Below are positions 833 through 17,346 of a stretch of 18,038 nt of DNA, in pieces. The stretch is from the NCBI GenBank assembly GCA_038867615.1, contig JAWBYA010000013.1, forward strand, positions 1 through 18,038. The letters are read 5' to 3'. The stretch comes from Sulfolobales archaeon (GTDB lineage: Archaea; Thermoproteota; Thermoprotei_A; Sulfolobales; AG1). A program made the position numbers and the translations under genes. The stretch's first letter is position 1. The number at the start of each line of letters is the position of its first letter. The notes beneath the pieces are model-generated. The model saw only the letters and a program-made list of their open reading frames with translations. It was not told where the DNA came from and did no database searches.

Positions 833-1308
833 ACAACACACCATCAATATTAATCTATGCAGAACATCTCTACTATTTAAAACCCTCATCATGTTCGAGA
901 AAATATGCGCAAATCTACCCAAAGAGAAACAAACACGCTAGGAAAACCTTACACCAAGACTCCGTAACACCGTGGCAAGTTGATCCAGTTCCACATAGTT
1001 TGTAGTAGTTATTACCACCCCACATGCTAGATCTCCGTTATCCTATATATACCTATATTCTGAAAATACGTACTACAGGAATGCCACCCACAATATATGT
1101 GTTGCATATAACGAGCTGGTTTGGTTAAAAGTTTTCCGCAATAACAGGCCAGAGACAGAACATAAAAAGGGAATTATGGGCAAGGCCGTGCCGTGTGATA
1201 GCAGCCATGGATCTCGGTGATGATACTACAGATCATCATATGTATTCAAAATAACTCTATTCTATATTCTATATATTACTGTTCGTGTTTTGTCTCATAT
1301 ATTGTAAT

Positions 1309-1345
1309 GTAATATTTATATTACGCCTTAGTATTAAGTAATACT
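1309..1345 (+). promoter_or_regulatory. Promoter of the cstA-like gene with overlapping palindromes
   Basis: TTTATA at 1315-1320 lies inside GTAATA-ttta-TATTAC (1309-1324). A second palindrome AGTATTA-ag-TAATACT spans 1330-1345. Confidence 0.6.
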
Positions 1346-1349
1346 GAAG

Positions 1350-3128
1350 GTGTACAAATTGCTGGACACACCAATGCCTTATATATTAATAGGACTTGTA
1401 ATATACGCGATAGCATATGCTATATATTCAAAGTATATTGATAAGAGGATATGGCAGTCGGATCCAAGCAGACCAACACCAGCTAAGCAGTATTTCGACG
1501 GTGTTGAGTACTTCCCCATAAGCAAATATGTCCTCTACGGATACCAGTTCAAAAGCGTAGCAGCTCTGGGACCAATAGTAGGTCCTCTAGTAGCGGTGGG
1601 GTTCTACGGGTGGCTTCCTGCACTGATATGGCTGATCGTTGGTAACTTCTTCATAGGCTGGGTTCAGGATTACTCAGCTATGATGATGTCAGTAAGAAAT
1701 GATGGGAGATCCATGGGGCCTATAACATACGAGCTTCTGGGTAATAGAGCGAGACAGCTACTCTTAGGATACCTGATAGCCTATCTAATAATAATAACCT
1801 CTGTATTCGCATGGGTTATAACCACGGTGTTTAACCAGATCCCAGGCACATTCATACCAATACTATTCATACTATTCACAGGCGTGATCTTCGGACACCT
1901 AGTATTTCGACTAAAGATCGATGTCCTTATAGCAACAATCGTGGCCTTAGTGCTTGTATTCGCAGGGATCGTTCTCACAGTAACATTCCCACAGCTGAGA
2001 GCCCCGGGAACCAACTTCCTCGACGACCCAAGAACATTGCCGCTCGATGTGAGAACATTCCCAACGCAGCCTGGAACATTTACAGTACTCTTCTGGCTCA
2101 TAGTCCTGGCTATTATATACTATATAGGCGCGGTGACACCGATGCCTAGGTTTCTATTACCAACAGTATATGTTGGATACCTACCAGCAATCATAGCCCT
2201 AATCCTAGTGATCATAGCTGCGCTTGCAACCCCATTTACAGGGTTAAAGATAGCACAAGCCCCGGTAAAGAATTTATGGCCAACAAACCCACTTGAAAAC
2301 CCACAAACAGGCCCATTATGGCCAATACTTTTTGTCACAATAGCATGTGGAGCTATATCTGGGTGGCATAGCCTAGTCTCAAGCGGGCTTACGTCAAAGC
2401 AGCTTGAGTTTGAGACAGATGCCAGACCCGTTGGTGGAGGGGCTATGATCACAGAAGGCATCGTTGGGCTATCCTCAGTAGCCTCAGTAATGATCCTGGC
2501 AACATACCCACTAGCAGCAGGAGCATATGTAACTGGCGCGTCGACACTTACATCAGCCCTAACAGGTATTTCGAGGGATGCTATGAACCTATTCTATGCG
2601 ATGTTCGTAGCAGTTATGGGAATGATAACAAGCATGCTGTTTGTAAGAGTATGGAGAACCGTTTCTGCGGAATTGTTTGAGAGAAACATACTTGGCAATA
2701 GATGGGTCTCCCCACTGGTTCTCATAATAATAATGATCTTCCTAGCATTCACTGGAAGCTGGGTCAACCTATGGCTCCTCTTCGGAGGAACAAACCAGCT
2801 GCTCGCAGGATTAGCACTCCTACTAGTTGCCGTATACCTTGCCAAGGTAAAGAGACCAACGTGGTATGTTATATACCCCGGAATGTTCATGGCAATAACC
2901 ACCGTCGCAGCCCTACTCTGGGAGGCATATACGTATACAGCATATCTACTAGCCAACAGGCCAATCGGTGTCCAGGCAGCGGTTCAAGCAAAATTCGGAG
3001 CAGGTGTGGTTACGGTTTCAAACATGGTTTCAGCAGCGCTTGGTATTATTCTCGCTATCATGGGCGCCTTAATGACATACTATCTCTTTAGAGGCTATTT
3101 CAGGTACAGAGCAGCCGCTAAAGCCTAG
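1350..3128 (+). CDS. cstA: CstA (carbon starvation protein A) family membrane transporter, divergent subfamily
   Basis: 592-aa polytopic membrane protein with CstA motifs RPTPA...DGVEY, GPIVGP, YGWLPALIW, SVRNDGRS, PILFVTIACGAISGWHSLVSSG, GAMITEG, WLLFGGTNQLLAGLAL. Start may be TTG1359 (AGGTG upstream). Confidence 0.9.
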   Translation: MYKLLDTPMPYILIGLVIYAIAYAIYSKYIDKRIWQSDPSRPTPAKQYFDGVEYFPISKYVLYGYQFKSVAALGPIVGPLVAVGFYGWLPALIWLIVGNFFIGWVQDYSAMMMSVRNDGRSMGPITYELLGNRARQLLLGYLIAYLIIITSVFAWVITTVFNQIPGTFIPILFILFTGVIFGHLVFRLKIDVLIATIVALVLVFAGIVLTVTFPQLRAPGTNFLDDPRTLPLDVRTFPTQPGTFTVLFWLIVLAIIYYIGAVTPMPRFLLPTVYVGYLPAIIALILVIIAALATPFTGLKIAQAPVKNLWPTNPLENPQTGPLWPILFVTIACGAISGWHSLVSSGLTSKQLEFETDARPVGGGAMITEGIVGLSSVASVMILATYPLAAGAYVTGASTLTSALTGISRDAMNLFYAMFVAVMGMITSMLFVRVWRTVSAELFERNILGNRWVSPLVLIIIMIFLAFTGSWVNLWLLFGGTNQLLAGLALLLVAVYLAKVKRPTWYVIYPGMFMAITTVAALLWEAYTYTAYLLANRPIGVQAAVQAKFGAGVVTVSNMVSAALGIILAIMGALMTYYLFRGYFRYRAAAKA

Positions 3129-3147
3129 ATATAATCAATTATAATAA

Positions 3148-3153
3148 TTTTTT
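3148..3153 (+). terminator. Putative oligo-T terminator after cstA
   Basis: T6 run about 20 nt after the stop codon in an AT-rich spacer. Confidence 0.45.
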
Positions 3154-3203
3154 AATATAAATCCGATTTTCTAATTTATAGATTAGATAGATCCTTGTTG
3201 AAC

Positions 3204-3211
3204 TTATATTA
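3204..3211 (+). promoter_or_regulatory. Putative TATA box for the small-protein/ATPase operon
   Basis: TTATATTA about 23 nt upstream of the GGTGG RBS at 3234-3238. Confidence 0.45.
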
Positions 3212-3244
3212 ACCCTAGTGGCAGTATTATTTCGGTGGTAAATA

Positions 3245-3541
3245 CTGAGCAGTGGTAATCCAAGCGATACTAGTAGTAAGAAAGGTATTAGAGGCCTATT
3301 ATCACGATTAAGCGAAGCTGTATATGGAATCTCCCTCCATGGGCAGGTCACAGCAATAATGAAGGAGAAGATGTATATAGAGTATCTCTTCATGCTCATG
3401 ACTATAGGGGATATGATGGGGATCCCCCTGCTTCCACCATACTACACGCTCAGGCTCTTGCCATACATGGTTCCTAACATCAAGGGTTGGAAGCTAAGGA
3501 TGCTTCGAGAGAGGGACTTCACCGACATTGTAACCGGGTGA
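3245..3541 (+). CDS. Small CstA/ArsA-associated protein A (98 aa if started at CTG3245; the ORF track gives only 3359-3541)
   Basis: Frame open from 3242 (in-frame TAA at 3239-3241). Aligns without gaps to the 5560-5859 paralog upstream of ATG3359. Core motif G-D/E-x-x-GIP-x4-YY-x-LRLLPY...LRE-R/K-D. RBS GGTGG 6 nt before the CTG. Confidence 0.8.
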   Translation: MSSGNPSDTSSKKGIRGLLSRLSEAVYGISLHGQVTAIMKEKMYIEYLFMLMTIGDMMGIPLLPPYYTLRLLPYMVPNIKGWKLRMLRERDFTDIVTG

Positions 3542-3545
3542 TCCT

Positions 3546-4577
3546 ATGCCGAGGAGCGTTGGATTTAAGTACCTATTTGAGAAAAGACCTGAGCTCAAGA
3601 TAGCTATATTCGCTGGTAAGGGAGGGCTTGGCAAGACGACATCTAGCGCTGCGCTCTCCTATAAACTTTCCAGTATGGGTAAGAGGGTTCTCTGCTTCTC
3701 AACAGATCCTCAGGCCTCGCTGAGCGATATATTTGAGAAGGATCTATTTGGTAAAGGCGAGATAGAGATCTCTAAGAACCTCTATGTCCTAGAGATAGAT
3801 GCTGATAAAAGGATTAAGGAGTATGTCGACTCTATAAGACAGAAGATCAAGGATATGTATAAGATAGAGGAGATCCCCAGAGAAGTTGAGGATTATATTG
3901 AATCAGCTGTGGCCGAGCCTGCTATGTATGAATCAGCTGTATACGATGCAATGCTCGACGTGGTTTCGCAGAATAAGTATGACTTCTATGTCTTCGACAT
4001 GCCTCCCTTCGGACACGGGATAAGGATGGTTGCTATGGCAGATATTCTGAGCAAGTGGGTCGACAAAATAACAGAGGCTAGGAGGCAGGCGTACGAGTAT
4101 GAGAAGGTGGCCTCTAGACTTAAGAGGGAGAAGTATACGGAGAGAGAGGATCAGTTGTTAAAAGAGCTCGAGAGCATAAGAGATAGGATCGTTGGTTTCA
4201 GCAGATTAATAACAGATCCCAAGGGGACTGCATTCACAATGGTCCTGATCCCTGAGAAGATGGCTATAGTTGATACTGAGAAGGCCCTAAAAATGTTCGA
4301 AGAGCTGGGGCTGAGAATGTCTGGCGTTGTTGTCAACCAAGTCTATCCACCAGCGATCCTCGAAGACCCCAGGGCTCCCGAATATCTCAAGAAAAGGGTT
4401 GAGGCTCAGAAACCATTCTTGAGAGAGATATACGAGAAGTTCGAGAACCTCATACTAGCCATAATACCAATGCTCAGAAGAGAGCCTAGAGGACTTGAGA
4501 TGATAGAGGCTGTAGCCAAAGAGCTCTGGGAGTCTACCATAACCCTCGATGATCTTGAGGCTATATCCAAGAGGTGA
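3546..4577 (+). CDS. arsA: ArsA/Get3(TRC40)-family ATPase, subunit 1 (catalytic motifs largely intact)
   Basis: Deviant Walker A GKGGLGKTT, Switch I STDPQASLSD, Switch II DMPPFGH, IPEKMAIVDTE, VVVNQV. Single nucleotide-binding domain. Confidence 0.92.
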   Translation: MPRSVGFKYLFEKRPELKIAIFAGKGGLGKTTSSAALSYKLSSMGKRVLCFSTDPQASLSDIFEKDLFGKGEIEISKNLYVLEIDADKRIKEYVDSIRQKIKDMYKIEEIPREVEDYIESAVAEPAMYESAVYDAMLDVVSQNKYDFYVFDMPPFGHGIRMVAMADILSKWVDKITEARRQAYEYEKVASRLKREKYTEREDQLLKELESIRDRIVGFSRLITDPKGTAFTMVLIPEKMAIVDTEKALKMFEELGLRMSGVVVNQVYPPAILEDPRAPEYLKKRVEAQKPFLREIYEKFENLILAIIPMLRREPRGLEMIEAVAKELWESTITLDDLEAISKR

Positions 4578-4582
4578 TCACA

Positions 4583-5560
4583 ATGCCGATAATTAGAGGA
4601 GAGCAGAAATTCATATTCGTAGGGGGTAAGGGGGGCGTTGGAAAAACGGTGCTAGCATCCGCGATAGGACTTAACCTCGCAGAGCAGGGGTATAAGACGC
4701 TCATAGCCAGCTTCAACCCTGTCCACTCACTATCTTCGGTGTTTGAGCAAAACCTGTCGGGAGGATCTATAGTTGAGGTTAAAGGCGTAAGTAATCTATA
4801 CGCCGTAGAAGTAGAGATCGAGGATGTTGTTGCTAGGTATAAAGAGAGGATAACAAAACTTATAAGGGATTTCCTCAAATGGGCCGAGATCCCGATAGAC
4901 CCAAAGGGGTTTATAGAGATAGCGACAACAAACCCAGCATTCCAGGAAGCAGCCTCCTTTGATAAAATGATGGATCTTATACTCAACGAGTCAGAGAGGT
5001 TCGATAGAATCGTCTTTGACACAGCTGCTGTTGCTAATGCTATAAGGTTAATAGGTCTATCAAAGATCTATGGTCTCTGGCTCCAGAGGGTTATAAAATC
5101 GAGACAGGAGGCATTATCGCTCAGAGCCCAGCTAAGCTTTAGGAAAGATAAAGTGTTGGAAGAGATGAAGAGCGACCCGGTATTGATAGAACTCCTCGAG
5201 CTGTATAAGAGATATACCAGTGTGAAGAGCGTACTCACAGATCCCTCGAAAACCAGCTTTATATTCGTTACAATACCGACAATGCTATCCATATCTGTTG
5301 TGAGAAGGTTCATGGATATGGTGAAGGCCTATGAAATACCCTCCGGAGGTGTTGTAGTAAATATGCTTATACCCAAGGAGGAGGCTGATAAAGACGCTAC
5401 AGGCTTCCTCAAATCCAAGTTCGAGGAGCAGGAGAGAAATGTTGAATATATTAGAAAGCTGTTCGGAAACCAGCTCCTAGGATACATACCCCTATACCCT
5501 GAGGATATCGTTGGTATAGATAGGCTCAAAAGGCTCATAAAGGATCTCGAGGCACGATAA
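4583..5560 (+). CDS. arsA: ArsA/Get3-family ATPase, subunit 2 (degenerate catalytic motifs)
   Basis: Walker A GKGGVGKTV, Switch I SFNPVHSLSS, Switch II DTAAVANAIRL, VVVNML. GAGGTGA at 4571-4577 favours ATG4583; GTG4574 is the alternative. Confidence 0.9.
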   Translation: MPIIRGEQKFIFVGGKGGVGKTVLASAIGLNLAEQGYKTLIASFNPVHSLSSVFEQNLSGGSIVEVKGVSNLYAVEVEIEDVVARYKERITKLIRDFLKWAEIPIDPKGFIEIATTNPAFQEAASFDKMMDLILNESERFDRIVFDTAAVANAIRLIGLSKIYGLWLQRVIKSRQEALSLRAQLSFRKDKVLEEMKSDPVLIELLELYKRYTSVKSVLTDPSKTSFIFVTIPTMLSISVVRRFMDMVKAYEIPSGGVVVNMLIPKEEADKDATGFLKSKFEEQERNVEYIRKLFGNQLLGYIPLYPEDIVGIDRLKRLIKDLEAR

Positions 5561-5859
5561 TGAAAGGGATCACCGGTAGGCTTTCAACAACAGCTGATAG
5601 GGTTAAGAGGATAGTGAGTGACTTTATATTCGGTATGAGCACCTATGAGATATATAGGGAAACGCTCCATATAGCTAGGAGTTACAAGGATTCGGTATAT
5701 CTTCTACTACTAGGTGAATTCCTAGGAATACCTTTTATCTCTAACTACTATGCATTAAGACTACTCCCATACCTAGTGGGCGAGCTTGAGGCTTTTAAGA
5801 GGAGAAGCCTCAGAGAGAAAGATCTATTGGAGGTTGTGAGTGAGCTTGATGCGCACTGA
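5560..5859 (+). CDS. Small CstA/ArsA-associated protein B (paralog of protein A)
   Basis: TAATG stop/start overlap with the second ATPase. LGEFLGIPFISNYYALRLLPYL...SLREKD matches IGDMMGIPLLPPYYTLRLLPYM...MLRERD. Confidence 0.85.
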   Translation: MKGITGRLSTTADRVKRIVSDFIFGMSTYEIYRETLHIARSYKDSVYLLLLGEFLGIPFISNYYALRLLPYLVGELEAFKRRSLREKDLLEVVSELDAH

Positions 5860-6331
5860 GTCAAAGAACGTAGCGATAGCAGTAGGCAACATAATAACAG
5901 GGGTCTATAATTACCTTGTAATATCGATTCCGGTTGATTGGAGGATAGTGGTCATACCGATGAACTCGGATGTTTTTACAAGCACAAAACAAGGAAGCGT
6001 AAAATGGGTAAAAGAAGGGGAAGTAGAGCACGGGCTAGCAACACCTAAGGGTGAGATCATGCTTAGAATCAAGATATGGCCCGGCTTTAAAGAGCAGATG
6101 AGGATCAAGGATCTGAGGAGGGTTGAGAAGATATACGACCTAGTGATCTCTGGACATGGAGCGAAAGCCTATATATATAGGAAGAAACACGGATTAAGAA
6201 CAACCAGAACCCTGGGGATCCATCTATACTGCGGAATCACTGACAGAACCATGCTGATCGAATTTATAGGAGGTGAAGACTGGGTTGATGCCGTGCTAAA
6301 TAGTATAGGAGGTAGTATGTGTCATGTTTAG
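5840..6331 (+). CDS. Hypothetical protein (beta-rich, C-terminal Cys-His)
   Basis: 163-aa ORF overlapping both neighbours in the operon. Contains HLYCGITDRT and terminal SMCHV. No family recognised; start uncertain (GTG5840, TTG5846 or ATG5849). Confidence 0.7.
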   Translation: MSLMRTESKNVAIAVGNIITGVYNYLVISIPVDWRIVVIPMNSDVFTSTKQGSVKWVKEGEVEHGLATPKGEIMLRIKIWPGFKEQMRIKDLRRVEKIYDLVISGHGAKAYIYRKKHGLRTTRTLGIHLYCGITDRTMLIEFIGGEDWVDAVLNSIGGSMCHV

Positions 6332-6710
6332 AACTAAACCCCACAGATCGTCTGCAACTGTTGTAGAGATAATAACAATCAACCCAATAATGCTTGGCCA
6401 CTGCGAACACTGTGAGATCCTCATGAAGGGCTTTGGAGTCGACTATAAACCCCGACAGGTTAGTGAGTACCCGGAGGATTTGCTAGAGCTATCTAAAAAG
6501 CTCACAATATTTATAAACATGATTACACGTAGGGTTTTTGCTAGGGTAGTAATAATAGAAGCACTCACGCTAAGAGGGCTTTTCAAAATGATCATGTATA
6601 GAGGTGGGAGATTACCGATTATTGCTGTTAATGGAAAGAAAATAGCTGTCGGAACTAGGTGGGAGCCAGAAGCTCTAGCTAAAAAGGTTCTCGAGATGAT
6701 TACAAACTAA
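6324..6710 (+). CDS. Thioredoxin-fold-like protein with HCEHC motif
   Basis: CxxC after the first beta strand (VVEIIT...GHCEHCE) and a late Pro-strand motif RLPIIAVNGKK typical of Trx/glutaredoxin folds. GGAGGT RBS upstream and 8-nt overlap with the previous gene. Confidence 0.7.
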   Translation: MFRTKPHRSSATVVEIITINPIMLGHCEHCEILMKGFGVDYKPRQVSEYPEDLLELSKKLTIFINMITRRVFARVVIIEALTLRGLFKMIMYRGGRLPIIAVNGKKIAVGTRWEPEALAKKVLEMITN

Positions 6711-6731
6711 ATAGACGATCTGGGGCTTGTA

Positions 6732-6739
6732 TTTATAAG
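6732..6739 (+). promoter_or_regulatory. Putative TATA box for tfb
   Basis: TTTATAAG upstream of the GGGGTGA RBS at 6781-6787. Confidence 0.5.
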
Positions 6740-6794
6740 CTCTGAAACGCATATTATTTATGCATGCCTAGTTATTAGTGGGGGTGATGGTTTT

Positions 6795-7769
6795 TTGAAC
6801 ATGGTTTCAGGAGTTAACGAGGTTGAGGCAAAGACTGGGAAGGGTAGCGGTAATCAGGATACCAAATGCCCTCCAGATAAGATCGTGATCGACATAGCCA
6901 GAGGAGCATATATATGCGAGGAGACGGGAGAGGTTCTAGAGGAAAGGATCGTCGATCAAGGGCCTGAGTGGAGGGCATTTACGCCTGAGGAGAGGGAGAG
7001 GAGAACAAGATCCGGGTCACCCCTAGCCCCAGCAATGGAGGGTATAGGTTTAGTTACGATAATTGACTACAAGGATAGAGACGCAACCGGCAAGAAACTT
7101 GATCTGAAAAAGAAGATGGAGTACGCAAGGATGAGGAAATGGCAGATAAGAACAAAGGTTCAGAACGCCATAGATAGGAACCTCACACAGGCCAGCTCCG
7201 AGCTCCAGAGACTAGCAAACTCCCTCGGCCTCCCAAAGGAGGTTCAAGAACAGGCTGCAATTATATATAGAAAGGCTGTTGAGACAGGGCTAGTCAGGGG
7301 GAGAGCTATCGAGAGTGTTGTTGCAGCAGCACTCTATGCAGCCTGCAGGATCATGAACGTACCCAGGAGTCTTGATGAGATAGCCCAGTATACGAAGAGC
7401 GGGAGAAAGGAGCTTGCAAGATGCTTCAGACTATTATACAAAGAGCTCGACTGGAAGGATCTCGGGCTCGAGATGCCAAAGCCCGATCCGTTCCACCACG
7501 TTCCAAAGATCATAAGCACCCTCGGCCTTAGCGGAAGCATAGAGGCGACAGCTAAAGAGATACTTAAGAAGATAAGGGATACCGGAATAGGTGCTGGCAA
7601 AGACCCAGCTGGTATAGCGGCTGCTGCTGTCTATATAGCATGCTTACTCAATAACGAGAAAAAGACGCAGAAAGAGATAGCCATGATAGCAGGTGTTACC
7701 GAAGTGACTGTTAGGAATAGGTATAAAGAGATAGTAAAGGCGTTAAAGCTAAACCTGCCTCTAACGTGA
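6795..7769 (+). CDS. tfb: Transcription initiation factor IIB (TFB)
   Basis: N-terminal ribbon CPPDK...[10 protein letters not shown]-reader DQGPEWRAF, and two cyclin repeats ([19 protein letters not shown]; [15 protein letters not shown]; [14 protein letters not shown]). Start TTG6795 or ATG6801. Confidence 0.97.
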
Positions 7770-7788
7770 CGCTATAACTATATAGGGC

Positions 7789-7793
7789 TTTTT
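7789..7793 (+). terminator. Putative oligo-T terminator after tfb
   Basis: T5 run about 20 nt after the stop; a second T5 at 7825-7829. Confidence 0.35.
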
Positions 7794-7833
7794 AACAAGC
7801 AACGCTTCGATAACAATCAGAGAATTTTTCAAC

Positions 7834-7869
7834 TAAGGTAGCGATTGCTATCAGTAACAACCTACCTTA
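7834..7869. repeat. Inverted repeat upstream of the aromatic operon promoter
   Basis: TAAGGTAG (7834-7841), 20-nt spacer, CTACCTTA (7862-7869); perfect 8-bp arms. Confidence 0.55.
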
Positions 7870-7909
7870 AACCAAAGCCTATCACACCTGCCCACACGAA
7901 TAGTAATGC

Positions 7910-7916
7910 TTATATA
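7910..7916 (+). promoter_or_regulatory. Putative TATA box for the aromatic operon
   Basis: TTATATA about 30 nt upstream of the GGTGGGG RBS at 7946-7952. Confidence 0.55.
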
Positions 7917-7954
7917 CCCTTTTTGAATTTACTCAAGGCGAGGTTGGTGGGGCG

Positions 7955-7993
7955 ATGGAATTCCAATACCAATGGGTAATGGCAAAAGCATAG
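7955..7993 (+). CDS. Candidate leader peptide/u[15 protein letters not shown] (or frameshifted N-terminus of transketolase)
   Basis: ATG GAA TTC CAA TAC CAA TGG GTA ATG GCA AAA GCA TAG. Preceded by GGTGG at RBS spacing, out of frame with and overlapping ATG7972. Confidence 0.45.
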
Positions 7994-8766
7994 AAGATCT
8001 CGAACTCCTAGCTATTAGAATAAGGAAGCATATACTAAGAATGTATCTCAACGACCAATCACTCCACCTCGGCTCATCGCTAAGCTCGGTAGAGATACTA
8101 ACAACAGTTGTGTTTAAATACCTAAGAAGAACCGGAGATCCCATTAACAGGGATTGGCTCATACTAAGCAAGGGGCATGCAGCACCAGCCCTCTACGCAG
8201 CACTTGCAGAAGCAGGACTCATACCTCTTGAAGAGCTTGAAAAGATACACAGCATAAATAGCATTCTACAGGGGCACCCGGAGATCTCTATACCGGGTGT
8301 CGATATGTCTACAGGAAGCCTTGGACAAGGGCTAAGTTTTGGCGTGGGTGTCGCTACAGCTATAAAGATCCACGGAGGGTCTGGGAGAGTCTATGTGATC
8401 ATGGGAGATGGTGAACAGGACGAGGGCGAGGTATGGGAGGCAATGACACATGCAGCAGCTAGAAAGCTAGATAACCTTGTAGTAGTGGTTGATAACAACG
8501 GCTTCCAACTCGACGGATTTATAGATGATATCAAGCCAAAGCACTATCTACCCCATGTATGGAGAGCTGTTGGCTGGAAGGTTCATATATGTGATGGTCA
8601 CAGCATAGCAAGCATAGATAGATCTATAAGCGATGCTATAAATAGCAAGGCACCAACAATAATATTCGCAAAAACAGTCAGAGGAAAAGGAGTCGTCGAG
8701 ATAGAGAACACAAAGAGCCAGAAACCAGGTGTTGAGGTTGTTAAGAGAGCTCTCATCAATGCGTGA
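7972..8766 (+). CDS. tkt: Transketolase, N-terminal (TPP-binding) subunit
   Basis: [36 protein letters not shown] and the TPP motif MGDGEQDEG...VDNN. Confidence 0.95.
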
Positions 8767-9700
8767 GACCTTCGGAAAACTCCTCGTATCGCTGGGAGAG
8801 ATCCACAGGGATCTTGTCGTGATCACAGCAGATGTCGGAGACTCAACAAGAGCATCCTACTTCAGAGACCGCTTCCCAGCAAGGTTCTTCAACATAGGAA
8901 TCTCGGAACAACATATGGTGAACTTCGCAGCAGGGCTAGCAGCGACCGGCATGAGACCCCTTGTAACATGCTTCGCAATGTTCCTCATGAGAGCCTGGGA
9001 ACAGATAAGAAACACAACAGCTAGGATGAACCTAAATGTGAAGTTCATAGCAACACATGCCGGGCTGAGTGATAGTATTGATGGCTCAAGCCACCAAGCA
9101 CTAGAAGATATAGCGTTGATGAGGGTGATCCCGAACATGAAGGTGGTTGTCCCAGCAGACTCCTCAGAGATCATGAGAAGCCTTCCAAGGATAATCGCTG
9201 AGGAGAGAGGACCTGTGTATTATAGAATAGGTAGGGACTACTCACCCCCAATAACAATTGATATAAGCGATGAGTTCAGGCTTGGTAGAGCAACAGTTCT
9301 AAGGGATGGAGAAGATGTAACCATAATAGGCGCCGGACCCGTTCTCTGGAACGCGTTAGAAGCGTCAAAAGAGCTCAGCAGAATAGGTATAAGAGCCGCT
9401 GTTATAGACATGGCTAGTATAAAACCAATAGATGAGGATGTAATAGAGAAATATGCAAGAAAAACAGGAGCTATAGTAACGGTTGAGGAGCATAGCATAC
9501 ACGGGGGATTGGGATCTGCTGTAGCAGAGGTTGTGGTGAAGAGATACCCCGTTCCAATGAAGATCCTTGGAACAATAACCTTTGGAAGAACAGCAAAATC
9601 CCAGGAAGAGTTGATAGAGCACTTCGGGCTTGGGAAAAATTCCATCATAAAGGCCGTGGCGGAGGTTATGGGGAGTGGTAGGAGATCTAGAGTCTCTTAG
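8759..9700 (+). CDS. tkt: Transketolase, C-terminal subunit
   Basis: MRETFG start (ATGCGTGA overlap with the upstream gene), [45 protein letters not shown]. Confidence 0.95.
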
Positions 9701-10715
9701 GGCTGAGATAGATAGAGTTGATGAAGCATTGATCGAGATGATCTCGAGAAGGATAGAGATATCGAGAAAAATAGGATATATAAAGAGAGCAATGGGGCTC
9801 CCCACACGAGACCCTGGCAGAGAGCAGGAGGTGGTGAAAAAATGGATCGCCCTTTCGAAAGAAAAAGGACTGCCAGAGGATCTTGCCCAGAATATTGTAA
9901 AGCTACTTATACAGTACTCAATAGCAGCCCAATCGACCAACAGGGCTAGCGGCTTGAGGGTGGCTATAATAGGCTATGGAGGTATGGCTAGAACCTTGGG
10001 GAAGATCATATCCAGAGCTGGATATAGAGTCAGCATAAGCGGAAGGGATCTCGAGAAAGCAGGGAACCTTGCAAAAGAGCTTAACTGCAGCTATGGCGAG
10101 CCAGACGATGTGATCACGGAGAGTGATTACGTGCTATTAACCCTCTCCAGAGAGGCCTTTGCAAAAGGATATTTCGATGTAATTGCAGCATTCATGAAAG
10201 GTAAAGTTGTTATGGATATACTCTCAGCAAAGAGAGAGATCTATCACTTGATAGAACGTGGATCTATGAGGTATGGGTTTAAATATATATCAACACACCC
10301 ATTATTCGGCCCTCTATCCATACCATACGGAGAAACCATAGTGATCATACCATCTTCAACAGGGCTCGACGTTGTTAACGAGGTAGCCTCATTCTGGTCA
10401 TCGGTAGGACTCATACCCATCATAACAAGTTATGAAGAGCATGAGAAAGCGATGGCCATAGTCCAGGTCCTCCCACACATATATATGCTAGCCCTCTCAG
10501 AAGCTGTAGAGAGACTCTCCAAAGACTTCGGCATAGATTACAGGGTATATATGACCTATAACTTCAAAAAGATACAGGACGCCATAGATCGTGTTAAAAG
10601 CAACATGAAAGCCGTACTTGAGATCCAGGAGCATAACGCACACGCTCCTGAAGCTAGAAAGATAGGGCTCGATGCTCTTTTTTCCACAGTTAAAAAGTTT
10701 GGTGGTGATAGATGA
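9675..10715 (+). CDS. tyrA: Bifunctional chorismate mutase (AroQ)/prephenate dehydrogenase
   Basis: N-terminal [19 protein letters not shown]...K...RDPGRE AroQ domain, then Rossmann [31 protein letters not shown]. Confidence 0.92.
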
Positions 10716-11707
10716 TCCTATATGTGATTAAGAAAGGATCAAGTATTGATAACCTAGTAGATAAGCTAAGTAGCATGGGAGCATCCCTCAGAATAGTAGA
10801 GCTATATGGCAGAAAACTGGTTCTAGCATGGCCTGATAACATAGCAGAAGGCTTAACAGATCCTAGTATCGAGGCAACGATAAAAACCAAAAAGCCTTAT
10901 CCCCTAGCAAGCAGAGAGTGGAAGAAAGAAGATACAATAGTAAACGTAAATGGAGTCGAGATAGGGGGTAAGAGGATAGTAATTGCAGCCGGGCCATGCT
11001 CTGTTGAGGATGAGGAGCAGATGATCTCGATCTCTCGAACACTTAAGAGTCTAGGGGTCTCGATGATAAGGGGCGGTGCCTTCAAGCCCCGAACCAGCCC
11101 CTACTCATTCCAGGGTCTTGGCGAGAAGGGATTAAAGATCCTGAGGAGGGTGTCTGAGGAAACCGGTTTACCGGTGGTTAGCGAGATAATGGATCCCAGA
11201 GATGCAGCTCTATTTAAGGAATATGTGGATATGGTTCAAATAGGTGCTAGGAACTCCCAGAACTTCTCATTATTAAAAGAAGTTGGGAGAATAGGAAAAC
11301 CCGTTCTGCTCAAGAGAGGCTTCGGAAACACTGTTGATGAGTGGCTCAGCAGTGCTGAATACATATTGCTAGAGGGTAATGGCTCCGTCGTTATATGTGA
11401 GAGAGGTATAAGAAGCTTTGAAACAGGGACAAGATTCACACTAGATGTGGGAGGCATAGCGCTTGCGAAGAGACTAACACACCTCCCAGTATGCGCGGAT
11501 CCAAGCCATCCAGCAGGTAAAAGAGATCTGGTTGCACCCCTAGCCTTAGCAGCTATAGCTTCTGGGGCTGATATGCTTCTGATAGAGGTGCACCACAGCC
11601 CGGAGAGGGCTCTGAGCGATTCCGAGCAACAGTTAGATATAGCTGGTTTCGCCTCTCTTATGGAGAGGCTAAGATCCGTTGCAAGGATCCTTGGGAGAGA
11701 TCTATGA
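10712..11707 (+). CDS. aroF: DAHP synthase, type I-beta, with N-terminal regulatory-type extension
   Basis: IAAGPCSVE, RGGAFKPRTSPYSFQGLG, QIGARN, LLKRG, CERGIR, ADPSH, ALSDSEQQL. Confidence 0.96.
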   Translation: MILYVIKKGSSIDNLVDKLSSMGASLRIVELYGRKLVLAWPDNIAEGLTDPSIEATIKTKKPYPLASREWKKEDTIVNVNGVEIGGKRIVIAAGPCSVEDEEQMISISRTLKSLGVSMIRGGAFKPRTSPYSFQGLGEKGLKILRRVSEETGLPVVSEIMDPRDAALFKEYVDMVQIGARNSQNFSLLKEVGRIGKPVLLKRGFGNTVDEWLSSAEYILLEGNGSVVICERGIRSFETGTRFTLDVGGIALAKRLTHLPVCADPSHPAGKRDLVAPLALAAIASGADMLLIEVHHSPERALSDSEQQLDIAGFASLMERLRSVARILGRDL

Positions 11708-12762
11708 GGAGATATGTATCAAACCTATGCAGCGCAAAAAGCGTAGTAGTTGTTGGCAGCAACTCTCTAGATGTTCTGAGCGAGATTGAGGGAGAGGTCT
11801 CTGTAATACATAGCTCGAGGATAGATCCCGAGCCTGTTGTTAAGAGGCTTAGGAGGGTATCAAGCATAATAGCTATAGATGATGGTGAGAAGGCGAAAGA
11901 CATATCGGTGGTTCTCGATACTGTGAGAAAGATCCATACGGGATCATCACCAGATCTGGAGTGGATAGCAGCACTCGGAGGCGGAACTATAATGGATGTA
12001 GCAGGTTTCGCTGCATCTATATATAAGAGAGGGATCAAGCTGATCAACATACCAACAACGCTACTCGCAATGGTGGATGCCGCAATGGGTGGTAAGAATG
12101 GTGTTAACATGGATGGTGTTAAGAACATGCTTGGAACATTCTACCAACCAGCCCTAGTAATATCGGATATCTCGTTCCTCAAAAGCCTTTCCAGAGATGA
12201 TCTCGCCAACGGCATGGCAGAGGTTATAAAATACTGCATAACCCTCGATAGGGAGTTATGCGGGCTCCTAGAGGCTAGATATAGAGATATATATAATAAG
12301 GATCCTGGGGCTTTTGAGGAGATAATATTTAGATCCGCCGTTAATAAGATGAGGATCGTTGAGGCTGATGAGAGAGACAACATGGGCATAAGGATCGTGC
12401 TTAACTATGGGCACACAATAGGACATGCCATAGAGGCTAGCAGCGGTTTTAAGATAAGTCATGGGAAAGCTGTGTCGATAGGCATGGTCTGTGAGGCAGC
12501 ACTAGCAGAAGAGCTCGGAGTCGCGGGAAAAGATGTGGTTAGATATCTTGAGGAATTGCTCTCTCTCTATAGCCTCCCAAGATCTTCTAGAGAGCTTGGA
12601 GTCGAAATAGATCTAGACATGGCGATTAAGGCATTGAATATGGATAAGAAGAGAAGAAGAGGAAAGATCCTGATGCCCCTGCCAAGGAAAATAGGTGAGT
12701 GGGAAAGGGTAGAGCTTGACATAGAGATCCTTGAGGGGTTATTGAGAAAATGCCTAGAATAG
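11704..12762 (+). CDS. aroB: 3-dehydroquinate synthase
   Basis: DGEKAKD, ALGGGTIMDVAGFAAS, PTTLLAMVDAAMGGKNG, KNMLGTFYQP, LNYGHTIGHAIE, DKK. Confidence 0.96.
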   Translation: MRRYVSNLCSAKSVVVVGSNSLDVLSEIEGEVSVIHSSRIDPEPVVKRLRRVSSIIAIDDGEKAKDISVVLDTVRKIHTGSSPDLEWIAALGGGTIMDVAGFAASIYKRGIKLINIPTTLLAMVDAAMGGKNGVNMDGVKNMLGTFYQPALVISDISFLKSLSRDDLANGMAEVIKYCITLDRELCGLLEARYRDIYNKDPGAFEEIIFRSAVNKMRIVEADERDNMGIRIVLNYGHTIGHAIEASSGFKISHGKAVSIGMVCEAALAEELGVAGKDVVRYLEELLSLYSLPRSSRELGVEIDLDMAIKALNMDKKRRRGKILMPLPRKIGEWERVELDIEILEGLLRKCLE

Positions 12763-13556
12763 ATAGTACAACAAGGCTCAGCGGACTTATAGGCAGGGGG
12801 ATAAGGTATACACTATCCCCAGCAATACATAACTATGTATTCGATCTAACGGGGTTTAATGCGGTATATCTAGCCTTCGACCTATCTGAAGATATATTTG
12901 ATAATGCTGCAGCCGGGCTTGTGGAGATCGCCCTTGGCCTTAACGTAACAATACCATATAAAGAGAAGATCCTGAGATATATAGAGAGATCCGACTCCAT
13001 AGCATCCAAGATAGGCGCTGTTAACACTATATATAACAAGGTTGGCTATAACACCGATTACCTAGCAATCAAACAACTAGTTGAGGAGAAGATCGGCAGG
13101 CTTAGCGGTGCTAAATGCCTAGTCTTCGGAGCCGGGGGTGCTGCTAAAGCAGCCTCATACGCACTCGGAGATCTAGGGTGCGAGATATATATTATCAACA
13201 GAACCAGAACCAGAGCCGAAGAGCTCGCCCAGAGAATGAAAAGCCACGGCTACCAAGCTGAAGTGATCCAGGAATGCAGCAATATTAAACAAGAGATCAT
13301 AGTTAATGCAACCCCGGAACCATCATCGATACCAAGAAGCTGTATAGAAGGTATAGCAGCAATAGATCTCGTATATAGACCTGTAAAAACATATCTAATA
13401 GATGCTGCAGAGAAGAGAAACATGACCACGATAGACGGTCTTCAAATACTAGTAAGGGGAGCCCTCCACTCCCAAAGCATATGGCAACAGAGAGACCTAA
13501 CACACCTAGAGGATAAGGTGGTGGATTACCTATATGCCGGGAAATACGTTTGGTAG
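12750..13556 (+). CDS. aroE: Shikimate dehydrogenase
   Basis: [43 protein letters not shown]. Confidence 0.95.
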
Positions 13557-14706
13557 GGCTCTGAGGATAACCACCTTCGGAGAAAGCCACGGACCCGCGG
13601 TAGGGGTTGTAATCGATGGTGTCCCAGCCGGCCTCCCACTTAGCGAGAGTGATATAGAGTTCGAGTTATCATTCAGAAGGCCCGGAAGGATCTATGTTTC
13701 TGGGAGGAGAGAAGAGGATAAACCAGAGATCCTCTCAGGAGTATTTAACGGAAGAACAACAGGCGCACCAATAGCTGTAGTTGTGAGAAACATAGACGTT
13801 ATATCCAAACCATATGACGAGATCAGATATAAACCCAGACCAGGGCATGCGGATCTCCCATACATAATTAGATATGGGTATGAAAACTGGGATCATAGAG
13901 GAGGCGGGAGGGCTAGCGCTAGGGAAACCGTGGCTAGAGTAATAGGTGGGGCTATCGCCAAAAAGCTGTTAATGACCACAGATACATGGGTGGCGGGACA
14001 TCTAAAAAGCCTCGGCCCGCTTGAGTTAAACACAGAGCCAAGTTTTGAAGAGATACTGTGTTCTAGAAACAGCCCCGTGAGAGCATGTAGGAAGGATTTG
14101 GAAGAGGCATACCAAGATCTTATAATGAGGGCTGTGAAGGAGGGAGATAGCTACGGAGGGGTTGCTGAGATTATCGTGAGAAACCCCCCAGCAGGGCTTG
14201 GCGAACCTGTCTTCGATAAGATCAAAGCAGATCTGGCTAAGGCTATCCTCTCAATACCAGCCGTAGTTGGTTTCGAGTACGGGCTCGGCTTTAAAGCAGC
14301 TAGGATGAAGGGTAGTGAGGCTAACGATGAGATCATTGTTAAGGATGGAAAGCCTAGGTGGAGATATAACTATAGCGGCGGGATCCTCGGCGGGATAACG
14401 ACTGGTGAGGATATAGTTATTAGATGCGCCTTTAAACCAACCAGCTCTATCAGAAAGCCTCAGAGAACGATAGACCTGAGAACCATGGAAGAGACAACAA
14501 TATCTGTCACCGGCAGGCATGACCCTGCAGTAGCTATAAGAGGGGTTTCGGTTGTTGAGGCTATGGTTGCTCTTGTAATAGCTGATCACATGATAAGATC
14601 CGGGGTTATAAATCCCGTCAGACTCTCCAAAGAAGACATCGATAGGATAGAGAGTAATTGGAGGAGGTATATAGAGGCATGTGGGCATATGCAGGGGTCT
14701 CAGTAG
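13534..14706 (+). CDS. aroC: Chorismate synthase
   Basis: [55 protein letters not shown]. Confidence 0.97.
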
Positions 14707-15458
14707 TAAACGCGATCCCCGCGTGGCTCGGATCCACCATGGCTGTGAATCTGAGGATCGAGGTTTCGTTAGAAGAAGGCTCTGAGTATCATGAGGGATT
14801 AATAGGCACTATTATTGAGCATTTCAGACAAAGCATAGGAATACCTGGACTGAGAGTTTCGGTCAGATCCCCGATACCAGCTGGAAGCGGGCTTAAGAGC
14901 AGTAGTGCTGTTGCAGTAGCCCTCATAGAGGCTATAAAGAATAGATATGGCTTGAGCCACATAGACACACCAAAGCTGGCGTCAGAGCTATCAATAAAGG
15001 CTGGTGTCTCTATAACAGGCGCTTATGATGACTCAACAGCCTCATACCATGGAGGGGTATCATTCACCAATAATAAAGAAAATAAACTGCTAGATCTCCG
15101 AGAACCCCCTAAAGACCTATCGGTGATCATACTGGCTAGGGGGGGAAGAGCCAGAATAGATCCTAGTGCTTTGAGGAGGTTTGAAGACCTCTTCAGAGAG
15201 ATCTTCAATATAGCTATGAGGGGAGATATATTAACAGCAATGAGGCTTAACGGAATAGCTGTAGCCGAGATACTGGGCTATGAGACCGAGCCCATCAGAG
15301 AAGCCCTGAGACTAGGAGCCCTAGCAGCCGGGGTTAGCGGGAACGGGCCCTCGATCTTCGCGATCACCAAGAAAGGGGAAGAAGGACCTGTTATAGATCT
15401 ATTTAGCAGGTTTGGCAGGGTTTTGGTAACAGAGCCTGCTAGTATAACGAGGTCATAG
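14679..15458 (+). CDS. aroK: Archaeal (GHMP-family) shikimate kinase
   Basis: [12 protein letters not shown] motif [38 protein letters not shown] upstream favours ATG14679; the ORF track starts at TTG14658. Confidence 0.94.
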
Positions 15459-15461
15459 GAT

Positions 15462-16712
15462 ATGAAGGTTCGTATAGAGAGATCAATTATCACTGGAGCA
15501 GTCAGAGCACCAAGATCTAAAAGCCATGCCATAAGACTTATATTCGCATCCCTACTATCCCCAGTAGAGATAATAGATCTTCCTCGCTCTGATGATGTAG
15601 ATGCAGCTGTAAGAGCCGTCAAGACCCTCGGAGTCAATGTAGATAACAATATCTATAGGCTAGAGGGAAAGGCATCGATAAAGAATGAAAATATATACCT
15701 GGGAGGCTCTGCAACAAGCCTGAGGATCTTGATCCCGGTGATAGCGGTGATAGGAGGTAAGGTGAACATAGATGGTGATCATAGCCTTAGGAGAAGGCCT
15801 CTCAACGCGATCGCACAGGCTCTGAGTGGTAGAGGCGTCAAGATATCATCAAACCACCTTCCAGTAACTGTGGAGGGGAGATTAGATGATACATGGGTAA
15901 GGATAGCTGGGTGGGAGAGTAGTCAATACATATCAGGCTTCATGATAGCCTTCTGCCTCTCAGGCAGTGGTAAGATATACATAGAACCCCCTATAGTGTC
16001 GAGAAGCTATATATACCTCACAAGAGAGGTGCTCATGGATTTTGGATGCTATTCAGAGATCTCGGGCAGTATCATTGAGGTTGAGAGGAGAGAGAAACCC
16101 AGGTTTGTAAGGGCAAAGGTCGAGGGCGACTACGCACTAGCATCTTTCTATGCCGCCTCAGCCCTAACCACTGGGGGTCAGCTTGAGATCCTGGATCTCC
16201 CTGAGCCAAAGCAATATATAGGGGATCACTTGATAGTTGAGATATATAGGAACATGGGTGCCGAGAGTATCTATGTAGATAAAACATGGATAGTCTCAGC
16301 CAGCAGCCTATACAGAGCTGTCGATGTTGATATAGAGGATATACCAGATCTAGGCTTATCCATAGCACCGCTAGCTGCGATATCAAATGGAGTGACAAGA
16401 ATCAAAGGAGCCGGTAGGCTTAAGATCAAGGAGAGCGATAGAATAGCATCTATAATAAACGTTCTAGACAGCTTTGGTGTCAGAGCATGGACTAACAATG
16501 ATAGCGAGATCTTTATCGAGGGAAGGTCTAACGATAATGCCAAACCTGCAGAGATAAACTGTATGAATGATCATAGGGTTGCTATGATGGCTGCACCGCT
16601 AGCCCTAAGGGCCGGCGGGGTTATATATGGGGCGGAATGTGTTAATAAGAGTAACCCGAGATTCTGGGAGGATCTGGTGAGCATCGGTGGCAGGGTTAGG
16701 ATTGAGGAATAG
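15462..16712 (+). CDS. aroA: 3-phosphoshikimate 1-carboxyvinyltransferase (EPSP synthase)
   Basis: PRSKSHAIR, GSATSLR, SLRRRP, ESSQYISG, VEGDY, IPDL, LKIKESDRI, NDHRVAM, CVNKSNPRFW. Confidence 0.96.
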   Translation: MKVRIERSIITGAVRAPRSKSHAIRLIFASLLSPVEIIDLPRSDDVDAAVRAVKTLGVNVDNNIYRLEGKASIKNENIYLGGSATSLRILIPVIAVIGGKVNIDGDHSLRRRPLNAIAQALSGRGVKISSNHLPVTVEGRLDDTWVRIAGWESSQYISGFMIAFCLSGSGKIYIEPPIVSRSYIYLTREVLMDFGCYSEISGSIIEVERREKPRFVRAKVEGDYALASFYAASALTTGGQLEILDLPEPKQYIGDHLIVEIYRNMGAESIYVDKTWIVSASSLYRAVDVDIEDIPDLGLSIAPLAAISNGVTRIKGAGRLKIKESDRIASIINVLDSFGVRAWTNNDSEIFIEGRSNDNAKPAEINCMNDHRVAMMAAPLALRAGGVIYGAECVNKSNPRFWEDLVSIGGRVRIEE

Positions 16713-17346
16713 AAAACCGATTGTTATCGCATCACTGCCAATAAGATCGCCTCAAGACCTTTTGAAGATCGGGACTGCCGATGACGCGGATCTTGTAGAG
16801 GCTAGGCTTGACTACATGGATAACCCTCTATCGATAGAACCAGATCTTCTGGCAAGATTTAGGGATAGAATTATAGTCACTATAAGAGATAGATCAGAAG
16901 GGGGTTTAAGAGAGGTTAACGAACGCCTCAAAGCTGAATATCTTAGCAGACTTGATAAACTCGGCCTACTATACGACGTCGAGATATCTTTCGTTGAGAA
17001 ACACGGAATCCCGTATAGTGGGAAGATCCTCTCGATCCATTACATATCCAGGCTACCAACAAAAGAGGAAGTTATATCGAGAATAAACGCTTATGCAGAG
17101 AAAGCATTCGCTATAAAAATAGCTGTCAATAATATGAAGGGCTATAAAGAGCTTCTAGCATCTCTCCTAGAGGTTGGGTATGATAACATAGCTGTGATGC
17201 CGATGGGCTCAGATCCTCTGGAAAGAATAGCACTAACCCTCATGGGATCAAAACTCATCTATGGATATATAGAAACACCAACAGCCTCGGGACAGATGCA
17301 CTATAAAGAGATTATAAGAATGCTGAAATGTGTCTATGGATCCTGA
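16687..17346 (+). CDS. aroD: Type I 3-dehydroquinate dehydratase
   Basis: DLVEARLDY, VTIRDRSEGG, YDVE, LSIHY, AIKIA (Schiff-base Lys), PTASGQ. GGTGA 6 nt before the GTG. Confidence 0.93.
   Translation: MAGLGLRNRKPIVIASLPIRSPQDLLKIGTADDADLVEARLDYMDNPLSIEPDLLARFRDRIIVTIRDRSEGGLREVNERLKAEYLSRLDKLGLLYDVEISFVEKHGIPYSGKILSIHYISRLPTKEEVISRINAYAEKAFAIKIAVNNMKGYKELLASLLEVGYDNIAVMPMGSDPLERIALTLMGSKLIYGYIETPTASGQMHYKEIIRMLKCVYGS

Follow-up and report, generated by a model that had tools for sequence, protein, structure and literature searches.

Genomic context of the tandem ATPase genes

The window (the whole stretch of 18,038 nucleotides analysed, from a Sulfolobales archaeon) contains a tight + strand run of genes encoding, in order, CstA, CstX1, ATPase 1, ATPase 2, CstX2 and proteins of 163 and 128 amino acids. 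The module cstA-cstX-arsA1-arsA2-cstX is found in this order, as an operon, in archaea and bacteria. The cstA gene (1350..3128, +) encodes a CstA-family (carbon starvation) membrane transporter of 592 aa (PF02554, E 7e-100); it is the sole tblastn match to its protein in the genome and is covered by RNA reads. The next gene, cstX1 (3242..3541, +), encodes a small CstX/CC-star-like protein of about 98 aa (NF041419, E 3e-10, 40 bits, below the cut-off of 80), with Atlas feature matches to DUF7990 at 0.95-0.96, and a gene of this type lies immediately 5' of ATPase 1 in nearly all loci of sufficient length. It was delimited as a stop-to-stop frame with no ATG, GTG or TTG near its start (window 3234-3247); GGTGG lies 6 nt 5' of an in-frame CTG at 3245, in a stretch identical in loci L001 and L002, and this non-canonical CTG is probably the start codon. 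The two ATPase genes (hereafter arsA1, 3546..4577, +, 343 aa, and arsA2, 4583..5560, +, 325 aa) are followed by cstX2 (5560..5859, +), a second CstX paralogue of 99 aa that is 34% identical to cstX1. The stop codon of ATPase 1 lies 5 bases upstream from the ATPase 2 ATG, and the stop codon of ATPase 2 overlaps the ATG of cstX2. The CstX assignments are based on size, place and the CC-star model, the score for which was below the cut-off, and not on the sequences used by Castillo and Saier (PMC2963123). An in-frame GTG at 4574 would extend ATPase 2 from 325 to 328 aa, but the ATG at 4583 is the likelier start because GAGGTGA sits 5 nt 5' of it; all ATPase 2 residue numbers given here refer to the 328-aa form.

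The 163-aa protein (5840..6331, +), possibly the CstY of Castillo and Saier, has a predicted PsbP/Mog1-like fold (Atlas structure matches to PsbP at a TM of about 0.6) and co-occurs with the module in many loci. The 128-aa protein (6324..6710, +) carries a CxxC near its N-terminus; it has no Pfam or NCBIfam match and is also linked to the module in many loci. Upstream from cstA lie an ESCRT-III-like CdvB-family gene (203-832; NF041005, E 2e-37, below the cut-off) and an intergenic stretch of 517 bp (833-1349), AT-rich towards cstA, which presumably holds the promoter region of the operon. A promoter and terminator scan with a bacterial model, unsuited to archaea, yielded no more sites than did shuffled sequences. 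Downstream (6795-17346), we read a TFB gene, a split transketolase gene and a full shikimate-pathway cluster from the sequence, without a family scan, and we take these genes to be ordinary. The closest named locus to the window is that of 'Desulfurococcaceae archaeon AG1' (98%).

Of three hot-spring metatranscriptomes, two gave no matching reads; in the third, 246 reads matched positions 900-7000, 140 of them with at least 99% identity. Every bin from 1308 to 5591 (cstA through ATPase 2) was covered and the bins from 5592 to 6815 had zero reads. The reads were nearly all in one orientation, consistent with + strand RNA provided that the library was prepared in the usual stranded manner. Read depth over ATPase 2 was 1.5-4, and part of the reads over ATPase 1 came from other organisms. 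ATPase 2 is, thus, transcribed in the hot-spring metatranscriptome, although this does not imply a single common transcript.

Catalytic motifs of the two ATPases

Both proteins are predicted to have a Get3/ArsA fold, with TIGR00345 scores of 227 (ATPase 1) and 212 bits (ATPase 2), above the cut-off of 135, and PF02374 scores of 242 and 207 bits, respectively. The genome (94% complete) contains no other PF02374 match, and the two proteins are 28% identical across 303 residues. The single-chain AlphaFold2 model of ATPase 2 (pLDDT 87.6) had archaeal TRC40 (3zq6) as its top fold match (E 2e-24) and contained long helices at residues 153-221, which may correspond to a helical groove with the TRC40 insert.

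The preliminary description of this locus presented ATPase 2 as a natural pseudo-ATPase and proposed an asymmetric heterodimer with one active and one degenerate site. The catalytic set of ATPase 1 is retained (K25, D54, D151, G156 and H157), although this protein itself lacks the Switch I His (DPQA). In ATPase 2, the P-loop and its signature Lys (GKGGVGKT) are intact, but Switch I reads SFNPVHSLSS, versus STDPQASLSD in ATPase 1, with an AAC codon (4715..4717, +) placing Asn at the position of the catalytic Asp (yeast D57, MjGet3 D63). No alternative letter was listed for this codon among the RNA reads, the depth of which was low. The Switch II Gly-His is replaced by Ala-Asn (DTAAVAN), so ATPase 2 has neither the catalytic Switch I Asp nor the DTAPTGH of the TRC40/GET3/ArsA subfamily. 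DTAPTGH is the family consensus and not, as had been described, the sequence of ATPase 1, which reads DMPPFGH, with the Asp, Gly and His retained. The low cysteine content reported for the pair was borne out, with none in ATPase 2, one in ATPase 1 (C50) and, thus, no ArsA-type Cys triad; the CxxC zinc clamp was absent from all the ATPase 1 and ATPase 2 homologues described below (0/72, 0/78, 0/120 and 0/120, or 0/390 sequences in four overlapping sets).

The expected chemistry of the Asn site agrees with the earlier statement that this substitution allows ATP binding but blocks hydrolysis, and that the signature Lys acts in trans. The Get3 D57N variant binds ATP without hydrolysing it and is used as an ATPase-negative control (PMC12506534), and the ArsA D46N/D364N variant is non-hydrolysing and closes on MgATP (bioRxiv 10.1101/2025.03.21.644500). 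The signature Lys contacts the ATP of the other domain (bioRxiv 10.1101/2025.03.21.644500; PMC10248533). Castillo and Saier noted that the Asp of the SXD motif 'can be substituted only by N' (PMC2963123). The plain reading is that ATPase 2 would bind ATP without hydrolysing it, because no ATPase 2 sequence has lost the P-loop, the adenine Asn or the Asp of Switch II. Get3d proteins, which have degenerate motifs yet are still active ATPases (PMC10248533), count against certainty concerning the inactivity of ATPase 2.

Conservation and phylogeny of the pair

Conservation was assessed in a locus-derived set of 72 ATPase 1, 78 ATPase 2 (profile scores >380 and >320 bits, respectively) and 26 unpaired homologues, excluding fragments and the window's own copies; in the 120 listed of the 1320 ATPase 2 homologues retrieved at E 1e-40, which, by source name, span Pyrobaculum, Caldiarchaeum, Njordarchaeia, Bacillota and Symbiobacterium; and in a further set of 120 ATPase 1 homologues forming one bacterial-rich clade. 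The Switch I Asn was found in all the ATPase 2 sequences covering the site (119/119 among the 120 listed homologues and 77/77 among the 78 locus-derived sequences aligned), and the listed homologues all read D-x-A-A-V-A-N in Switch II (120/120). The Switch II Gly was replaced by Ala throughout (120/120 listed and 78/78 locus-derived), whereas the His was replaced by Asn in 72 of the 78 locus-derived sequences and retained in the other six. Across the ATPase 2 clades, Switch II is degraded in steps, from DTAPVAH through DTAPTAN to DTAAVAN. Other features of ATPase 2 are retained: the P-loop, the Asp of Switch II and the adenine Asn in every sequence, together with the Switch I His; GKGGxGK[ST] was present in 117/117 and 76/76 sequences, the metagenome part of the 76 being biased, as it was seeded with that motif. 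In ATPase 1, the Asp (71/71) and the Switch II Gly and His (72/72) were invariant in the locus-derived set, as they were in the further homologues (120/120). The Switch I Asp was also present in all 26 unpaired homologues; 14 of the 28 unpaired loci have a cstX gene, all reading DPAH. The 'PE' motif was previously described as degenerate, and IPTMLSISVV is indeed present here, but loss of the Glu is lineage-specific (Glu retained in 46/78 locus-derived ATPase 2 sequences and 5/120 of the nearest homologues listed), ruling it out as a family-wide trait.

Several homologues depart from these patterns. P0242 (Switch I region SLSTLHS), P0387 (SIDFQAS, with an altered Switch II) and P0244 are further-degenerate pair members, possibly extra paralogues or decaying copies. 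P0271, a homologue of 315 aa with the Switch I Asp, groups with the ATPase 1/2 clade and is possibly similar to the pre-duplication state. P0109, an ATPase 2 homologue on an 8-kb contig, carries the source label 'MAG Mycobacterium leprae' and probably comes from a mislabelled bin.

The ATPase 1 profile matched 43 of 401 genomes of the phylum, and all 43 had a second match immediately downstream, identified as ATPase 2 by position and score in the genomes that were not fetched. Among the metagenome ATPase 2 loci, ATPase 1 was found upstream in 51 of 52; the contig of the exception (G213) ends 101 bp upstream, which explains this apparent case of ATPase 2 without ATPase 1. These 52 loci, many of which lie on short contigs, included cstA in 33 cases and two or more cstX genes in 29. 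In two of the 43 genomes, the gene next to an intact ATPase 2 is an ATPase 1 interrupted so as to give two or three frames (L009:466-1489 and L010:250-1480), reflecting either sequencing error or decay to a pseudogene. A separate scan of genome contigs with a single sequence gave only three loci. At L117 (G067:C1:843000-853000), in a member of a family (f18) the other members of which carry the pair, cstX and a divergent cstA are instead accompanied by just one ArsA-like gene, of canonical type.

ATPases 1 and 2 formed sister clades with mirrored branching, with a FastTree support value of 0.996 (145 rows) and SH-aLRT values of 99-100 (47 rows), and their pairwise distances were correlated (r=0.97 over 66 pairs). 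This congruence points to an old duplication that has been kept, rather than to contact between the proteins, as a shared operon history alone would suffice to produce it. The dN/dS values for ATPase 2 relative to loci L001-L003 were 0.035, 0.026 and 0.028 (with dS near saturation for L003), those for ATPase 1 were 0.013 and 0.025, and ATPase 2 was similar to both ATPase 1 and cstA in this respect.

Database names reading 'arsenite-transporting ATPase' would suit a split arsenite pump, and ATPase 2 might otherwise be a decaying duplicate; taken together, these two explanations are scarcely credible. The decay reading, including the strain-specific decay that had been named as the refuting case, is refuted by the fixed Asn, by a dN/dS of about 0.03 and by changes that are invariant across two domains of life. 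The arsenite pump is contradicted by TIGR04291 (arsenical pump ArsA, a two-domain protein of about 580 aa, cut-off 650), for which the two proteins, both single domains, score only 119 and 95 bits, by the absence of Cys from ATPase 2, and by the neighbouring genes, which are cstA and cstX, with no ars genes.

The same conservation data bear on whether the two proteins might form a heterodimer in which both sites turn over, site 2 using another base or hydrolysing slowly, as in two-domain ArsA. The N- and C-sites of ArsA differ in rate but both hydrolyse ATP; the residues retained in ATPase 2 include the P-loop, the Asp of Switch II, the His of Switch I and the adenine Asn; the trans Lys persists in ATPase 1; and a few ATPase 2 sequences keep the Switch II His. 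We nevertheless consider this arrangement improbable, given that substitution by Asn at this position is the usual way of obtaining a non-hydrolysing variant in two proteins of this family and that the Switch II Gly has also been lost throughout ATPase 2.

Complementary changes at the predicted dimer interface

In Get3, R175 forms a bridge with E251, and E245 has a role in trans; neither feature is used here in support of the heterodimer. The interchain bonds of closed Get3 connect E251 and R254 to N61 and D64, the equivalent residues in MjGet3 being E253/R256 and S67/D70 (PMC11170914). In the alignment with MjGet3, D70 corresponds to S55 of ATPase 2, E253 to V242 and R256 to R245. The D64 position is occupied by Asp in all ATPase 1 sequences (71/71 and 120/120) and in no ATPase 2 sequence (0/77 and 0/119), whereas the R254 position is occupied by Arg in all ATPase 2 sequences (78/78 and 120/120) and in few ATPase 1 sequences (13/72 and 0/120), which mostly have Lys. 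At the second acidic position (yeast E251), ATPase 1 always has Asp and ATPase 2 always has Val (78/78 and 120/120), and the R175 position is Tyr in 32 of 72 ATPase 1 sequences. Unpaired homologues generally have both D64 (24/26) and R254 (21/26).

As the Asp and the Arg are split between the two genes, the bridge beside the live site would be complete only in a dimer of ATPase 1 with ATPase 2, in which the dead-site bridge would lack its Asp. This split of the Asp64-Arg254 bridge is the best evidence for a heterodimer. Together with the obligate pairing and the mirrored trees, this complementary division of the cross-subunit contacts supports, on comparative grounds, the asymmetric arrangement initially proposed, and a 1:1 heterodimer with one working and one ATP-holding site appears to be the most likely assembly (probability of about 0.72).

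Two separate homodimers, with ATPase 1 as the working enzyme and ATPase 2 as an ATP-locked closed dimer acting as a holdase or nucleotide sensor for CstA/CstX, would be consistent with the stable closed ATP-bound dimers made by Get3 D57N and ArsA D46N/D364N, with the frequent presence of two CstX genes, one per ATPase, and with the ATPase 1 signature Lys, which is kept in 69/71 locus-derived sequences; homodimers were also proposed by Castillo and Saier (PMC2963123). However, ATPase 2 lacks both D64 and E251, so neither of the published closed-dimer bonds would be possible and an ATPase 2 homodimer would leave its invariant Arg partnerless, yet this Arg and the signature Lys are both invariant. 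We therefore regard separate homodimers as unlikely. An ATPase 1 homodimer is less clearly excluded, as the Lys at the R254 position could pair with the Asp. ATPase 2 might also be an exchangeable regulator, swapping into a functional ATPase 1 homodimer to damp or time its activity: a dead paralogue with an intact interface could, in principle, be dominant negative, and ATPase 1 retains all its cis catalytic residues and the trans Lys and Glu. Such a role is highly improbable in the light of the overlapping or closely spaced frames, which suggest equal amounts of the two proteins, the pairing of ATPase 1 in all 43 genomes in which it was found, and the drift of the ATPase 1 interface (R254 to Lys; R175 to Tyr).

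The signature Lys of ATPase 1, which is predicted to face the dead site in the heterodimer, is only slightly relaxed (its conservation being complete, 120/120, in the further homologues), and the asymmetry of this residue (lost in 2/71 ATPase 1 versus 0/76 ATPase 2 sequences, with a seeding bias) was rejected as evidence because it is too weak. The two ATPase 1 sequences without it (L056:1715-2884 and L066:3921-4892) read GGGGVGKT, as would be expected of a subunit facing a dead site.

Fused two-domain homologues

In 214 two-domain homologues, 410 domain pairings were scored, after the removal of 18 with gaps. Eight domains had a Switch I 'DPQ', as in ATPase 1, and all eight retained their own E251; in every case (8/8), the partner domain had Val in place of E251, as in ATPase 2, whereas the partner lacked E251 in only 3 of the 402 other pairings. 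The partner domains had an altered Switch II (DxAAGAH or DxAAGLH), but kept the Switch I Asp in 7/8 cases, with Asn in the remaining one. This lineage, which represents one event, did not share the D64/R254 split, and its cross-domain pattern looks convergent with that of the ATPase 1/2 pair. The 'DPQ' proteins bear CxxC and have their halves covalently joined. They form a separate clade in both trees and were accordingly rejected as direct fusions of ATPase 1 and ATPase 2. No such fusion was found among 120 longer homologues, those listed of a total of 156 (best identity 34%), which is a weak test; these 120 proteins had Asp in both halves (120/120).

Within the fused CxxC clade, P0258, P0260, P0262, P0264, P0267, P0277, P0279, P0288 and P0295 have a degenerate N-domain (Switch II DxAAGAH, E251 replaced by Val or Ile, one with Asn) and a 'DPQ' C-domain. 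In P0284, the Asn lies in the C-domain instead.

Relationship to known systems

A publication from 2010 (PMC2963123) already described the module and the tandem pair, along with the occasional Asn. The CstA/CstX-associated single-domain ArsA proteins of cluster 15 (Castillo and Saier 2010, PMC2963123) lie in the same operon, with CstA and CstX, sometimes two CstX, and the operon studied here likewise combines CstA and CstX with an absence of ars genes. Adjacent pairs in Pyrobaculum arsenaticum and Symbiobacterium thermophilum were 25-31% identical (PMC2963123), a range that includes the 28% obtained here, and Pyrobaculum and Symbiobacterium proteins were among our ATPase 2 matches. The published account differs from ours in that, in the text available, the Asn is not tied to the second gene, homodimers are proposed, the words 'heterodimer' and 'inactive' are absent, and no experiment is reported. 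In a search with most of the subscription literature outside its scope, no paper was found reading the pair as asymmetric or testing the CstA-CstX-ArsA module; the only searched source dealing with CstA-linked ArsA was PMC2963123, with none from 2011 on, and the accessible part of Farkas 2019 (PMC6593721) makes no mention of CstA or heterodimers.

The pair is neither an arsenic pump nor a eukaryote-type Get3. It shares its predicted fold, the intradimeric Walker A and, possibly, the long helical groove region with eukaryotic and archaeal Get3/TRC40 (MjGet3, 3ug6; M. thermautotrophicus, 3zq6), but those proteins are symmetric homodimers with two active sites, whereas the pair lacks the CxxC zinc clamp and lies in a transporter operon. 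The two-domain ArsA of the ArsAB pump is similar in that it energises a secondary carrier able to work alone and has two sites differing in rate (bioRxiv 10.1101/2025.03.21.644500); it differs in being a single chain with Asp at both sites, both of which hydrolyse ATP, and three Cys that bind As(III), as opposed to two chains, one Asn site and no Cys triad. The mycobacterial proteins BagA and BagB (Rv3679/Rv3680) are encoded by adjacent Get3-like ATPase genes in one operon and, termed 'two interacting ATPases' in a cited title, provide a precedent for a Get3-like heterodimer, PDB 6bs3 containing one chain of each. They belong to a distant family, with no CstA link in the material available: relative to the NF053622 and NF053621 cut-offs of 400 and 521, ATPase 2 scored 39 and 32 bits and ATPase 1 scored 55 and 31 bits. 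Heterodimeric ABC transporters have one consensus site and one ATP-holding site, a logic resembling that proposed here, but they are an unrelated ATPase class and provide an analogy only.

Proposed mechanism and implications

We propose that a Get3/ArsA-like gene associated with CstA was duplicated long ago, yielding the two subunits of a 1:1 heterodimer, in which each ATP site would consist of the P-loop and switches of one subunit plus the signature Lys of its partner. Site 1, formed by Asp54, Gly156 and His157 of ATPase 1 and completed by Lys19 and Arg245 of ATPase 2, would hydrolyse ATP. Site 2, with Asn48, Ala154 and Asn155 of ATPase 2, would bind Mg-ATP, splitting it slowly or not at all, and would help to keep the dimer closed. 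A single hydrolysis per cycle would then open and close the helical groove, which would probably hold the hydrophobic CstX proteins and, through them, gate, energise or assemble the CstA transporter.

The roles of CstX as the client of the pair and of CstA as its target are weakly inferred. The coupling of ArsA-like ATP hydrolysis to CstA by CstX was proposed by Castillo and Saier (PMC2963123). In E. coli, CstA transports pyruvate at the expense of the proton gradient (PMC7730263), and it is not obvious why it should require an ATPase; ArsB likewise works alone but better with ArsA (bioRxiv 10.1101/2025.03.21.644500). For these reasons, we favour a boosting or gating of CstA through CstX, with the Get3-style chaperoning of CstX or CstA into the membrane as the alternative. 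A broader and distinctly tentative view is that these proteins constitute a two-gene family of intradimeric Walker A ATPases with a built-in dead site, in archaea and bacteria, in which single-site hydrolysis and a groove-held CstX adaptor might convert the proton symporter CstA into an importer driven or gated by ATP; on this view, cross-subunit asymmetry would have arisen by the same route, a Gln in one Switch I and the loss of the Glu facing it, a second time in the fused homologues.

ATPases of the Get3, ArsA, NifH and MinD type are regarded as dimers with two sites. If the asymmetric heterodimer is correct, a widespread natural pair has one site switched off, and one hydrolysis would be enough to drive the cycle; the fused and two-gene cases would provide natural tests of one versus two ATP per Get3-type cycle. 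The pair offers a thermostable system for studying the two sites one at a time. Its recognition would also put right the name 'arsenite-transporting ATPase' carried by a large family (with the ATPase 1 profile, 7962 of the 8000 candidates scored passed E 1e-100, not all of them necessarily ATPase 1), and would make the CstA-CstX-ArsA module, known since 2010, accessible to testing.
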